Of a stretch of 64,000 bases of DNA, positions 3,131-50,144 are shown in pieces (positions within the stretch are counted from its first letter, which is position 1; each line of letters starts with the position of its first letter). This DNA comes from Escherichia coli (GTDB taxonomy: Bacteria > Pseudomonadota > Gammaproteobacteria > Enterobacterales > Enterobacteriaceae): the NCBI RefSeq assembly GCF_003334815.1, contig NZ_QOWO01000013.1; one strand, 5' to 3'. Both the position numbers and the translations under genes were made by a program. The notes below the pieces were generated by a model, which saw nothing but the letters and a program-made list of their open reading frames with translations, did not search any database and was not told the origin of the DNA.

Positions 3131-4315
3131 TTAAACGGGCTGCCCCTGATGCGACATCCGCGTCGCCAGCGGCAGCCAGCACAGCACGATCAACAATCCC
3201 ATTAAGGTCATCAACAACCCCAGGCTGCCCTGACCGGTTTGCGGCAACATCGCAGAGAGCGACGCCAGCACGCCGGAACCAATGTTTTGCAGACCGCCGA
3301 CCAGCGCGCCAGCCGTGCCCGCCAGGAAGGGGAACGGCTCCATCGCGCCGCTGGTCGCCAGCGGAAACAGCATCCCGGCACCGAAAAAGAACAGCGCGGC
3401 GGGAACGAGCAGCGTCCAGACATTCATCACGCCAAACCAGTCGGGGATCCACATCAGCAAGCCAGCCAGCAGGCAGCAGATAACCGACTGCCACATTAAC
3501 GTGGAGAAGCGTTTATTGGGACGTCCGGCAAACCATGCGCCAAAAAACGCTGCCGGAATCGGCAGAATAAACAAAATACTGACCGTCATACTGCTCAGCC
3601 CTAACACCGCGCCCATCAGCACGCCGGAGCAGGCTTCAAAGGCGGCAATCCCGGCCAGACCGCCAATCAGCATCAGCAAATAACAGTTAAAACCGCTGTT
3701 ACCGAAAAGCGTTTTATAACTGGTAAGCAGGCGCGTGCGCGGTGCATCGACCGGACGCGTTTCCGGCATCCAGCGGGCCATACTGAAGGTCACACCAGCA
3801 CAAAGAACCAACAAAAAGAGATAACAGGCGCGCCAGTTCCACATCGTATCCAGCAGACCGCCGATTAGCGGTGCGAGCAACGGACTGACGAGAATCCCCA
3901 TGTTTAACAGGCTGTTAGCATGGCGCAACTGTGTCCGTTCATATAAATCTCGCGGTAAAGTACGCGCCATTACGCCGCCAACGCCGGTGCCCATCCCCTG
4001 CATCGCGCTGGCGGCAATCAACACCGTCAAACTGGAGGTCGTGACCGCGACCAGCGTTGCCAGCATAAAAATGGACATTCCGACGAGGATCACCGGTCGG
4101 CGGCCCACGCGGTCGGAAATCGGGCCATAAAACAGCTGTGAGACACCGTAAGTCAGCAGATAAGCGCCCATTACGCTCTGCACCGCCCCTTCACGGACGT
4201 TGAGATCGCGCGCCATATCGGCAATAGCTGGAATATAAATGGCTTGCGCCATCTGACCGACGGCCACGAGTAATACCAACATCAATAACAAATTGACGTT
4301 TCTTTGCCTTTTCAT
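3131..4315 (-). CDS. emrD: MFS multidrug efflux transporter EmrD
   Basis: 394 aa from MKRQRNVNLL...; the ORF track's MIMKRQ start is 2 codons longer. Confidence 0.9.
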   Translation of the reverse strand: MKRQRNVNLLLMLVLLVAVGQMAQAIYIPAIADMARDLNVREGAVQSVMGAYLLTYGVSQLFYGPISDRVGRRPVILVGMSIFMLATLVAVTTSSLTVLIAASAMQGMGTGVGGVMARTLPRDLYERTQLRHANSLLNMGILVSPLLAPLIGGLLDTMWNWRACYLFLLVLCAGVTFSMARWMPETRPVDAPRTRLLTSYKTLFGNSGFNCYLLMLIGGLAGIAAFEACSGVLMGAVLGLSSMTVSILFILPIPAAFFGAWFAGRPNKRFSTLMWQSVICCLLAGLLMWIPDWFGVMNVWTLLVPAALFFFGAGMLFPLATSGAMEPFPFLAGTAGALVGGLQNIGSGVLASLSAMLPQTGQGSLGLLMTLMGLLIVLCWLPLATRMSHQGQPV

Positions 4316-4984: not shown

Positions 4985-5128
4985 AAATACGTCAAAATTC
5001 GTGCCGAAATTGCGCGTTCTGCGCGGAACACGTATACTTTCAGTGTTGACATAATACAGTGTGCTTTGCGGTTACCAGCCGCAGGCGACTGACGAAACCT
5101 CGCTCCGGCGGGGTTTTTTGTTATCTGC
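4985..5128 (+). ncRNA. istR: Antisense sRNA IstR (IstR-2 / IstR-1); 5' end approximate
   Basis: Plus-strand terminator at about 5098..5122; contains the 22-nt repeat complementary to the tisAB leader; position divergent from tisB. Confidence 0.55.
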
Positions 5129-21920: not shown

Positions 21921-22015
21921 TGGCGGAAGATCACAGGAGTCGAACCTGCCCGGGACCGCTGGCGGCCCCAACTGGATTTGAAGTCCAGCCGCCTCACCGG
22001 AGACGACGATCTTCC
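21921..22015 (-). tRNA. selC: tRNA-Sec (selenocysteine, anticodon UCA)
   Basis: Reverse complement reads GGAAGATCGTCGTCTCCGGTGAGGCGGCTGGACTTCAAATCCAGTTGGGGCCGCCAGCGGTCCCGGGCAGGTTCGACTCCTGTGATCTTCCGCCA. Confidence 0.95.
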
Positions 22016-22307
22016 GCGCCTCGATTGCTACATGGAGGCGGGGCGCATTATAGCTACTTCCTTGAGTTTCTACATCCCCCAGATCAGTTTTTTCCGCCTA
22101 ATACACGCAGCGTATTATCACGAAAGCATTATAGTTCATATAAAACCCATATTTTACAATGATATATGAGCGGAATTAACGCTACCACGATCACATAAAA
22201 CAAGAATCATAAATTAATAACCAGATATCGGAATATTCGCTCTCACAGGGATGGTTTACAAAATGCGTTATCGGTCTCAGCACCCCTATAGCATCAAGGA
22301 AAAGCAG

Positions 22308-23695
22308 ATGAAGAGTGAAGTGTTGTCCGTTAAAGAGAAAATTGGTTATGGCATGGGAGACGCCGCCAGCCACATTATTTTCGATAACGTAATGTTATAT
22401 ATGATGTTCTTTTATACCGATATTTTTGGCATTCCTGCCGGTTTTGTCGGAACCATGTTTTTGGTCGCTCGTGCACTGGATGCGATTTCCGATCCTTGCA
22501 TGGGGTTGTTGGCCGATCGAACGCGCTCTCGCTGGGGTAAATTTCGTCCGTGGGTACTGTTTGGCGCACTGCCATTCGGGATCGTCTGTGTACTGGCCTA
22601 TAGCACGCCAGATCTCAGTATGAACGGCAAAATGATCTATGCAGCAATTACTTACACCCTACTTACCTTACCTTACTTTATACCGTCGTCAATATCCCTT
22701 ACTGCGCATTGGGTGGTGTAATCACCAATGACCCGACTCAGCGTATCTCGCTGCAATCCTGGCGTTTTGTGCTGGCGACCGCGGGAGGCATGCTTTCTAC
22801 TGTTCTGATGATGCCACTGGTTAATTTAATTGGCGGTGATAATAAACCACTCGGTTTCCAGGGCGGTATCGCGGTCCTTTCCGTGGTGGCATTCATGATG
22901 CTGGCATTTTGTTTCTTCACCACTAAAGAACGCGTTGAAGCACCACCTACAACAACGTCTATGCGGGAAGATTTACGTGATATCTGGCAAAACGACCAGT
23001 GGCGGATTGTCGGTTTACTAACCATTTTCAATATCCTGGCGGTGTGCGTACGCGGTGGGGCGATGATGTATTACGTCACATGGATTTTGGGCACGCCGGA
23101 AGTGTTTGTCGCTTTTCTCACCACTTATTGCGTGGGTAACCTGATTGGTTCCGCACTGGCAAAACCTCTGACCGACTGGAAATGTAAAGTCACTATCTTC
23201 TGGTGGACGAACGCCCTGCTGGCAGTGATTAGCCTCGCGATGTTCTTTGTTCCCATGCAGGCCAGCATCACTATGTTTGTCTTCATCTTCGTGATTGGTG
23301 TGTTGCATCAACTGGTGACACCTATCCAGTGGGTAATGATGTCCGATACCGTCGACTACGGCGAGTGGTGCAATGGTAAACGCCTGACCGGGATCAGTTT
23401 TGCTGGCACGCTGTTTGTGCTCAAACTGGGGTTGGCCTTCGGCGGCGCTCTTATCGGCTGGATGCTGGCTTATGGCGGATATGATGCGGCAGAAAAAGCG
23501 CAGAACAGCGCCACGATTAGCATCATTATTGCGCTATTCACGATTGTTCCGGCGATCTGTTATTTGCTGAGCGCGATTATCGCTAAACGCTACTACTCAC
23601 TCACGACGCACAATCTGAAAACCGTTATGGAACAGCTGGCTCAGGGTAAACGCCGTTGCCAGCAACAATTCACCTCTCAAGAAGTGCAGAACTAA
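22308..23695 (+). pseudogene. yicJ: GPH-family sugar:cation symporter YicJ, disrupted by a +5 frameshift
   Basis: Reading frame switches at 22671..22675 within cttac-cttac-cttac (22662..22676); ORFs 22251..22721 and 22709..23695 together span 1388 nt, i.e. 460 codons + stop + 5. Confidence 0.8.
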
Positions 23696-39368: not shown

Positions 39369-39658
39369 GGTTCTCTCCCTAAAAATCTGTCTGGCAGGGT
39401 AGCGATTTGTGCGCATTGTCACGATTGAGATTTTTTAAGGGGAGGGGAAATTGATAACTTGTAGTTATGTGAAATCGCTATTTTCTGTAGCAGAGATGCA
39501 TTCTTCTGACTTCTTGTCTGAGAAAATGCATAAGAAAAAATAGGTTAAAACTGAGGGGGGAAAAGAAAGGTGCAATATTTAGCCATTGTGTTCACTGCAC
39601 CTGGACCTTGGCTTACGCATCGGGTGTCTCAATCAACAAAAAGAGTTTTTAGTTTCTG

Positions 39659-40703: not shown

Positions 40704-41567
40704 TTATTCGATGTTCTGAATCTGCTCGCGCATCTGCTCAATCAACACTTTCAGCTCGATGGCGGAGTTTGTCACTTCGGCATTGATAGACTTCGACGCA
40801 AGAGTGTTCGACTCGCGGTTGAACTCCTGCATCATAAAATCCAGACGACGACCAACCGCTTCTTTTTTCTTCAGAATGTTGTAGGTCTCTTTGACATGCG
40901 CTTCGAGGCGATCCAGTTCTTCGGCAACGTCAATTCGTTGTGCCAGCAGAACCAGTTCCTGCTCCAGACGGTTGTTTTCCAGTTGCACCTGAGCATCTTC
41001 CAGCTTCGCGACCAGACGCTCACGCTGCCATTGCAGGATTTCCGGCATATGGGAGCGGACTTTGACCACTTCGGCGGTGACGCCTTCCAGACGCTGCTCG
41101 ATCAATGCTTTCAGTGCCTGACCTTCGGTTTCGCGCGCGACAATAAAGTCGTCCAGCGTACCATCCAGCGCCGCGAGAATTTCAGCGGCAATGGCGTCAA
41201 GATCCTGCTCCTGGGCTGCCATCACGCCCGGCCAGCGTAGAATATCAACCGGGTTGATTTCCCCTTCGTCACTCTGCATTTTTACCCAGTTCGCGGCAGT
41301 TACCAGCTGTTTAGCCAGTTTTTCGTTGAGGATCAGCTCACCTTGCGCGCTAACATCTGGCTCATAGCGCAGGGTACATTCCACTTTACCGCGCGTCAGG
41401 CGAGAACGAATACGCTCGCGAACGACAGGTTCAAGGCTACGGAACTGCTCCGGCAGACGAAAGTAAGTTTCCAGATAACGCTGGTTTACCGAGCGCATTT
41501 CCCAGGTTGCGCTCCCCCATTCACCCTTGATTTCACGCCGGGCGTAGGCGGTCATACTGCGGATCAT
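40704..41567 (-). CDS. yicC: YicC-family stress-induced protein
   Basis: 287 aa. Confidence 0.9.
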   Translation of the reverse strand: MIRSMTAYARREIKGEWGSATWEMRSVNQRYLETYFRLPEQFRSLEPVVRERIRSRLTRGKVECTLRYEPDVSAQGELILNEKLAKQLVTAANWVKMQSDEGEINPVDILRWPGVMAAQEQDLDAIAAEILAALDGTLDDFIVARETEGQALKALIEQRLEGVTAEVVKVRSHMPEILQWQRERLVAKLEDAQVQLENNRLEQELVLLAQRIDVAEELDRLEAHVKETYNILKKKEAVGRRLDFMMQEFNRESNTLASKSINAEVTNSAIELKVLIEQMREQIQNIE

Positions 41568-41693
41568 AGACGTTCCTGTTTATAAAAGGAGAGGTGGAAG
41601 GATTATAGCCATCGATGCCTTGTCAGGATAGGAATAACCGCCGGAAGTCCGTATAATGCGCAGCCACATTTGTTTCAAGCCGGAGATTTCAAT

Positions 41694-42410
41694 ATGCGTC
41701 CAGCAGGCCGTAGCAATAATCAGGTGCGTCCCGTTACCCTGACTCGTAACTATACAAAACATGCAGAAGGCTCGGTGCTGGTCGAATTTGGCGATACCAA
41801 AGTGTTGTGTACCGCCTCTATTGAAGAAGGCGTGCCGCGCTTCCTGAAAGGTCAGGGCCAGGGCTGGATCACCGCAGAGTACGGCATGCTGCCACGTTCT
41901 ACCCACACCCGTAACGCTCGTGAAGCGGCGAAAGGTAAGCAGGGTGGACGCACAATGGAAATCCAGCGTCTGATCGCCCGTGCTCTTCGCGCGGCAGTAG
42001 ATTTGAAAGCGCTGGGTGAGTTCACCATTACGCTGGACTGCGACGTGCTTCAGGCTGATGGTGGCACGCGTACCGCGTCGATTACGGGTGCCTGCGTGGC
42101 GCTGGTAGATGCGCTACAGAAGCTGGTGGAAAACGGCAAGCTGAAAACCAATCCGATGAAAGGGATGGTAGCCGCAGTTTCTGTCGGAATTGTGAACGGC
42201 GAAGCGGTTTGCGATCTGGAATACGTTGAAGACTCTGCCGCAGAGACCGACATGAACGTAGTGATGACCGAAGACGGGCGCATCATTGAAGTGCAGGGGA
42301 CGGCAGAAGGCGAGCCGTTCACCCATGAAGAGCTACTCACCTTGTTGGCTCTGGCCCGAGGGGGAATCGAATCCATTGTAGCGACGCAGAAGGCGGCGCT
42401 GGCAAACTGA
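41694..42410 (+). CDS. rph: Ribonuclease PH, apparently full length
   Basis: 238 aa from [10 protein letters not shown]... to ...[18 protein letters not shown]; 5-G run at 42360..42364 keeps the frame open. Confidence 0.9.
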
Positions 42411-42415
42411 TTTTT

Positions 42416-42443
42416 AAGGCGACTGATGAGTCGCCTTTTTTTT
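42416..42443 (+). terminator. pyrE attenuator (rho-independent terminator)
   Basis: ggcgact-gatg-agtcgcc followed by 8 T, starting about 8 nt after the rph stop. Confidence 0.8.
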
Positions 42444-42475
42444 GTCTGTAGAAAAGTAAGATGAGGAGCGAAGGC

Positions 42476-43117
42476 ATGAAACCATATCAGCGCCAGTTTA
42501 TTGAATTTGCGCTTAGCAAGCAGGTGTTAAAGTTTGGCGAGTTTACGCTGAAATCCGGGCGCAAAAGCCCCTATTTCTTCAACGCCGGGCTGTTTAATAC
42601 CGGGCGCGATCTGGCACTGTTAGGCCGTTTTTACGCTGAAGCGTTGGTGGATTCCGGCATTGAGTTCGATCTGCTGTTTGGCCCTGCTTACAAAGGGATC
42701 CCGATTGCCACCACAACCGCTGTGGCACTGGCGGAGCATCACGACCTGGACCTGCCGTACTGCTTTAACCGCAAAGAAGCAAAAGACCACGGTGAAGGCG
42801 GCAATCTGGTTGGTAGCGCGTTACAAGGACGCGTAATGCTGGTAGATGATGTGATCACCGCCGGAACGGCGATTCGCGAGTCGATGGAGATTATTCAGGC
42901 CAATGGCGCGACGCTTGCTGGCGTGTTGATTTCGCTCGATCGTCAGGAACGCGGGCGCGGCGAGATTTCGGCGATTCAGGAAGTTGAGCGTGATTACAAC
43001 TGCAAAGTGATCTCTATCATCACCCTGAAAGACCTGATTGCTTACCTGGAAGAGAAGCCGGAAATGGCGGAACATCTGGCGGCGGTTAAGGCCTATCGCG
43101 AAGAGTTTGGCGTTTAA
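42476..43117 (+). CDS. pyrE: Orotate phosphoribosyltransferase
   Basis: 213 aa from [11 protein letters not shown]... Confidence 0.95.
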
Positions 43118-43856: not shown

Positions 43857-44315
43857 CTACTGACGACCAGAGTGACCAAAGCCGCCTTCACCGCGGTCGG
43901 TGGCGTCGAAATCTTCCACCAGATTAAATTCAGCCTGTACTACCGGAACAAAAATCATCTGGGCGATGCGTTCGCCAGGTTGAATGGTGAAGCTGTCCTG
44001 ACCACGGTTCCACACGGAAATCATCAACTGGCCCTGATAGTCAGAATCGATCAATCCTACCAGGTTACCAAGCACGATACCGTGCTTATGTCCCAATCCG
44101 GAGCGCGGCAGCATCATTGCCGCCAGTGAAGGATCGGCAATATGAATCGCCAGCCCGGTCGGAACCAGCGTAGTGTCACCCGGAGCCAGTTCTACGGCGT
44201 CGTTGAGACAGGCACGCAGGTCAAGTCCGGCAGAGCCAGAGGTGGCATAAGTCGGGAGCGGAAATTCCTTCCCAACGCGCGGGTCCAGAATCTTAACGTC
44301 GATTTTTTTCATCAT
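43857..44315 (-). CDS. dut: dUTP diphosphatase
   Basis: 152 aa (MMKKIDVK...); a second Met gives 151 aa. Confidence 0.95.
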
Positions 44316-49704: not shown

Positions 49705-50022
49705 AGTAAATAGCTGACTTATGGATGTGCTGGGGATTCTATGTATTTAGCTGTGGCTTTACCATTACTTTTCCCGTTTTTGACTTAAATAGCTTCAGTT
49801 TGGTCTGATCTGCCGCTACATCTTCTTTTTTTTGTATTTTTATGCGATTCATTGAAACTCGGCCCCATTTTCAAATCTACATAGGCCGTACTGACATTAT
49901 CGAAATGCTATTTTTTATCTATTTGATTTTTATGATTAAAGTATATTTTGTGTATAAAAATCATTCGGGTCGGATTGCTGCGAAAGAAATGATACACTAG
50001 CACGTCAAAGTAAGTGCGTTAT

Positions 50023-50061
50023 CAGTATTCAGGTAGCTGTTGAGCCTGGGGCGGTAGCGTG
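50023..50061 (+). promoter_or_regulatory. JUMPStart element containing the ops site (RfaH loading)
   Basis: Exact GGCGGTAGCGTG at 50050..50061 in the waaQ leader. Confidence 0.8.
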
Positions 50062-50144
50062 CTTTATTCTGCTTAACTTAACCAGACAATCACACAAAAG
50101 AGTCGCTAGTGGAAAAGCCATTTCGAAAAATCCTGGTCATAAAG

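Follow-up and report, generated by a model that had tools for sequence, protein, structure and literature searches.

The window, a stretch of 64,000 nucleotides of Escherichia coli DNA, almost certainly carries an ordinary wild-type rph-pyrE junction and comes from a strain that is very close to K-12 and yet is not K-12. Full-length rph is the norm of the species, and the truncated allele rph-1 marks one branch of the K-12 pedigree. The initial annotation, which had singled out the full-length gene as a departure from MG1655 and W3110, overstates its significance, since nearly all E. coli have an intact gene and the exceptional allele is rph-1 of the laboratory strains. How the rph-1 lesion and the pyrE attenuator work was established between 1984 and 1993, and the locus adds nothing to this. 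Its value is only that of a strain marker, since a run of five Gs in rph together with threonine at codon 216 identifies the window as derived from a K-12-like, non-K-12 E. coli.

Anatomy of the rph-pyrE junction

The following features were located at the junction:

41694..42410, + strand: rph coding sequence, 238 aa plus TGA, full-length RNase PH (translation of the open reading frame and NCBIfam TIGR01966)
42339..42341, + strand: codon 216 of rph, ACC (Thr) in the window versus ATC (Ile) in K-12, with the SNP at 42340 (C versus T)
42360..42364, + strand: run of five Gs, codons Gly223-Gly224, site of the 1-bp deletion of rph-1
42379..42381, + strand: TAG, out of frame and silent in the window, premature stop in rph-1, 34 nt before the hairpin
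42408..42410, + strand: native rph stop TGA, 5 nt 5' of the base at which the attenuator stem begins
42416..42443, + strand: pyrE attenuator, an intrinsic terminator (terminator scan and RNA fold)
42464-42469, + strand: pyrE Shine-Dalgarno sequence GAGGAG, upstream of the ATG at 42476
42476..43117, + strand: pyrE coding sequence, orotate phosphoribosyltransferase, 213 aa (NCBIfam TIGR00336)

The rph reading frame spans 717 nt, from the ATG at 41694 to the TGA at 42408-42410. Both the listing of open reading frames and the translation agree with the initial annotation that rph is full-length, with 238 codons and its stop at this position. The product matches the TIGR01966 RNase PH equivalog profile with 380.3 bits (cut-off 141.5), residues 2-236 corresponding to profile positions 1-235 of 236, which is a match over the full length. 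A scan of 41500-41693 with the sigma-70 consensus found no convincing promoter for rph.

A G+C-rich hairpin followed by a U-run lies between rph and pyrE, with the rph stop directly upstream, as expected for the pyrE attenuator. The hairpin (42416-42437) has 9 bp and a 4-nt loop: its 5' arm AAGGCGACT occupies 42416-42424, the loop GATG 42425-42428 and the 3' arm AGTCGCCTT 42429-42437, and a run of eight Ts covers 42436-42443. Its predicted minimum free energy is -18.5 kcal/mol, compared with -10.8 ± 2.4 for shuffled sequences (z = -3.2). The initial annotation had placed the rph stop about 8 nt before the hairpin; the hairpin is real, but the spacing is shorter, with a gap of 5 nt from the TGA to the first paired base and 7 nt to the G+C core. 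When the entire window was scanned with Rfam, no family matched at the attenuator, for which no Rfam family is known to exist.

The pyrE product scores 240.6 bits against TIGR00336 (cut-off 106.8), and the coordinates of the gene agree with those of the annotated pyrE in MG1655 and C600. From 42361 through the last base of pyrE, the alignment shows no difference between the window and MG1655, the attenuator and the intergenic region included. With the sequence unchanged from the G-run onwards, the attenuator is the one that has been studied in depth. The wild-type rph-pyrE operon of E. coli has the same gene order, the same 238-aa RNase PH and the same spacing between stop and hairpin as the window, and its K-12 version also agrees with the window base for base in the attenuator, the intergenic region and pyrE.

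The G-run, codon 216 and the control of pyrE

Alignment with MG1655 (NC_000913.3, 3814000-3818000 taken as reference for the junction) places a 1-nt gap in the G-run, which is five Gs long in the window (42360-42364) and four in MG1655. As this compares the window directly with a reference sequence, coincidence plays no part. The two sequences are thus not identical across the run, and the rph-1 lesion, which the initial annotation had described as a 1-bp deletion in this very run, is indeed located there. In MG1655 the gene is annotated as "truncated RNase PH" with 687 nt and 228 aa, ending in ...ALARGESNPL*. The end of this coding sequence (3815863), mapped onto window coordinates, falls on the TAG at 42379-42381. 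The locus and its flanks are the same in the rph-1 strains MG1655, W3110, BW25113 and EMG2 as in the window, and the lesion sits exactly at the G-run. With four Gs, rph-1 is frameshifted after Gly223, acquires the tail ESNPL* and gives a product of 228 aa, whereas the five Gs of the window keep the frame intact. The distance from stop to hairpin is accordingly 34 nt in rph-1 and 5 nt in the window. Tests of the window for rph-1 were negative, since the four-G run, the frameshifted RGESNPL* tail of a 228-aa product and an in-frame premature TAG some 30 nt ahead of the native stop are all absent. The rph-1 allele has been reported in MG1655, W3110 and EMG2, while WG1 is without it (PMC9997739).

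A second difference within rph, the SNP in codon 216, is non-synonymous and lies 20 nt upstream of the G-run. The frequency of both sites was determined among 5,426 complete E. coli genomes by counting exact (≥99%) matches to short probes; a single SNP or gap suffices to move a genome into the 95-99% band, where the rest fall. The counts were as follows:

Four-G 74-mer (rph-1): 167 exact matches of 5,426; all of the 60 matches listed (60/60) are K-12 laboratory derivatives
Five-G 74-mer of the window: 1,474 exact matches of 5,426, O157:H7 included
Ile216 69-mer (K-12): 348 exact matches of 5,426; 6 of 6 entries drawn from different ranks are laboratory strains of K-12 type
Thr216 69-mer: 1,027 exact matches of 5,426, O157:H7 included, across phylogroups

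Strains listed with the four-G form comprise MG1655, W3110, BW25113, J53, HMS174, MFDpir and evolved clones. Among K-12-type assemblies, roughly half have the rph+ state. Thr216 is a widespread allele of natural isolates, and Ile216 appears, from the sequences sampled, to be confined to the laboratory lineage of K-12. One might suppose that the Ile216 of K-12, not the Thr216 of the window, is the oddity, and that the biochemistry of the K-12 enzyme is not fully representative of the species if Ile216 alters activity or stability of RNase PH; we consider this improbable.

The counts also bear on the quality of the sequence itself. The fifth G might be an error of homopolymer sequencing or assembly, the true run having four Gs. 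Two more single-base homopolymer differences from MG1655 occur in the window, at 39555 and 49825, and such sites are error-prone. However, five Gs maintain an intact frame and a full-length match to the protein family, the exact five-G 74-mer recurs in 1,474 independent genomes, and the four-G form was seen only in K-12 laboratory strains among the matches listed, whereas the window is not K-12. With the frame intact and the 74-mer so recurrent, an error at this site is very unlikely, to the point of being negligible.

A true five-G run is of consequence for pyrE. The model in which the pyrE attenuator is modulated by UTP and coupled to translation reportedly goes back to Bonekamp et al. 1984 and Jensen 1993, and also to Poulsen. 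A ribosome covers about 12-15 nt downstream of its P/A site. The established model, as summarised in PMC2784333 and PMC5933015, ties attenuation of pyrE to translation of the upstream open reading frame (PMC2784333), and UTP-dependent read-through via coupled translation is known for K-12 (PMC5933015, PMC2784333). In MG1655, W3110 and EMG2, the 1-bp deletion in rph leads to low pyrE expression and to partial pyrimidine starvation or auxotrophy (PMC9997739, PMC5933015). Mutations that return the rph stop of MG1655 towards the attenuator loop, for example a recurrent 82-bp deletion, relieve this defect (PMC2784333).

From this literature we infer the coupling mechanism and the resulting phenotype for the window. 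Ribosomes translating the five-G rph would continue as far as the native TGA (42408-42410), leaving 5 nt to the hairpin, and a ribosome terminating there would, judging by its footprint, reach into the 5' arm at 42416-42424. When UTP is low, polymerase would be slow and coupling tight; the ribosome at the stop would mask the 5' arm, termination would be suppressed and pyrE would be transcribed. When UTP is high, polymerase would outpace the ribosome, allowing the hairpin to form and transcription to stop. In rph-1, ribosomes would halt at the equivalent of 42379-42381, 34 nt short, leaving the hairpin unmasked, so that termination would be high whatever the UTP level and pyrE expression low.

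Since the window is free of the rph-1 lesion, its rph should encode an active enzyme, and pyrE, judged by the intact configuration of the junction, should be under normal regulation. Likewise, the strain should be spared the partial pyrimidine starvation from which MG1655 and W3110 suffer in minimal medium.

Relationship of the window to K-12 strains and natural isolates

In reverse complement, the window is colinear with positions 3794243-3858236 of MG1655, with 99.969% identity and no large indel. Over these 64 kb, the two sequences are separated by 12 SNPs and 4 indels, the G-run being one of the latter. The K-12-type core proposed in the initial annotation is borne out: the waa cluster is colinear with that of MG1655 and nearly identical to it. 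Content and order (waaQGPSBOJYZU-waaL-waaCF-rfaD) are the same, and only 3 SNPs were found, in waaJ, waaY and waaZ. A 25-kb piece with the waa cluster is matched at ≥99% by 456 of the 5,426 genomes.

Such similarity would suit a derivative of MG1655 or W3110 whose rph-1 lesion had been mended by engineering or had reverted spontaneously. Repaired rph+ strains of MG1655 do exist (PMC5933015), and both the 99.969% identity and the K-12-type waa cluster are in line with this origin. Repair, however, alters the G-run alone, whereas the 64 kb of the window show 12 SNPs and, besides the G-run, 3 indels, among them Thr216 instead of Ile216 within rph itself and a 5-bp duplication in yicJ. In addition, eight of the variants are common to 160-11H1, an isolate from chicken meat, and are thus natural polymorphisms, not laboratory mutations. 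In view of the differences elsewhere, Thr216 included, a repaired MG1655 allele is ruled out, and we assign it an exceedingly small probability.

An rph+ state without any repair is found in K-12 lineages that never gained rph-1, such as C600, MC4100 or those of WG1/NCM3722 type, and the window might belong to one of them. A full-length rph is annotated in C600, WG1 is without rph-1 (PMC9997739), and the Ile216 allele occurs in about 348 genomes, compared with only 167 that have rph-1. C600 provides a direct comparison. Over a comparison of 46 kb, this K-12 strain has five Gs and otherwise the MG1655 state at all variant sites. The window departs from either strain, with 11 SNPs and 3 indels separating it from C600 in these 46 kb. 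Since C600 equals MG1655 at the other variant sites, a repaired MG1655 as well as another K-12 lineage would resemble C600, not the window. The rph+ allele of K-12 (C600, WP_001247096.1) is one codon apart from rph of the window, which has Thr216 (ACC) and not the Ile216 (ATC) of K-12. Moreover, the K-12 strains C600, HST04, RR1 and DTU-1 rank below natural isolates in searches with the window. Descent from such a K-12 lineage is therefore very improbable, and we regard it as ruled out by the agreement of C600 with MG1655 at those sites in 46 kb.

The initial annotation had left two branches, a strain not derived from MG1655 or W3110 or else a repaired allele. The first is upheld by the further SNPs and indels and by Thr216; the second falls, as C600 matches MG1655 at these sites over 46 kb.

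The reading preferred here, a K-12-like strain outside K-12, is supported by the nearest relatives of the window, and nothing in the sequence speaks against it. When the window serves as query, K-12 strains are out-scored by natural isolates of human, pig, poultry, cattle and water origin, and the 901-bp rph-pyrE segment of the window recurs with 100% identity in many natural isolates, whose sources are humans, pigs, chickens and water. Two natural K-12-like isolates, TB06053 (fresh water, Galapagos) and 160-11H1 (chicken meat, Japan), have the same rph protein allele (WP_001247097.1) and the same waa cluster as the window, from which they are separated by 5 to 7 differences across 36-46 kb. 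TB06053 is the best match, with 5 differences in 36 kb besides its own IS600, which lies in dinD and is absent from the window. Eight differences between the window and K-12 are common to 160-11H1. Three 25-kb megablast queries covering the window found, for any of these pieces, no identical genome among the 5,426 complete E. coli genomes. Judging by these relatives, we infer that the strain of the window is probably of natural origin; it may belong to the ST10 complex of phylogroup A.

Further variants in the window

Some variants were found in the window alone. The most conspicuous is a 5-bp tandem duplication in yicJ (22662-22666), where CTTAC is present three times instead of twice. It splits the gene into two + strand open reading frames, 22251..22721 and 22709..23695. 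In MG1655, C600 and 160-11H1, yicJ is an intact gene for a 460-aa xyloside transporter. None of the best-matching genomes has the duplication, their matched spans being 5 bp shorter, and it looks like a pseudogenisation private to the strain of the window.

Four SNPs, at 43857, 45712, 56406 and 57946, are private to the window when it is compared with K-12, 160-11H1 and TB06053. These correspond to a change of the dut stop from TAA to TAG, P10S in YicR (RadC-like), H55Y in WaaJ and M223I in WaaY, respectively. Another private variant is located at 49825, between waaA and waaQ, where the window has one T fewer than MG1655; this loss may be genuine or may stem from the assembly. The natural K-12-like isolates TB06053 and 160-11H1 have none of the private variants of the window, the missing T at 49825 included.

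Several other differences from K-12 are found in natural isolates as well. One is an additional G relative to MG1655 at 39555, in the stretch from dinD to yicG, common to natural isolates. Non-synonymous SNPs at 4243, 20522 and 58105 correspond (K-12 residue first) to T25A in EmrD, T255A in SetC and I20T in WaaZ. The latter two are common to 160-11H1, and the EmrD site lies outside the loci compared. Upstream of waaQ, Rfam detects a JUMPstart element at 50023-50061, in a region annotated as the sRNA rirA in MG1655. A SNP at 50066 adjoins this element; the window shares its A with natural isolates, and K-12 has T.

Further Rfam matches at gathering level are istR (4990-5119, + strand) and the selenocysteine tRNA gene selC (21925-22015, - strand). 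Around selC the window is colinear with MG1655, so that no genomic island is inserted there.
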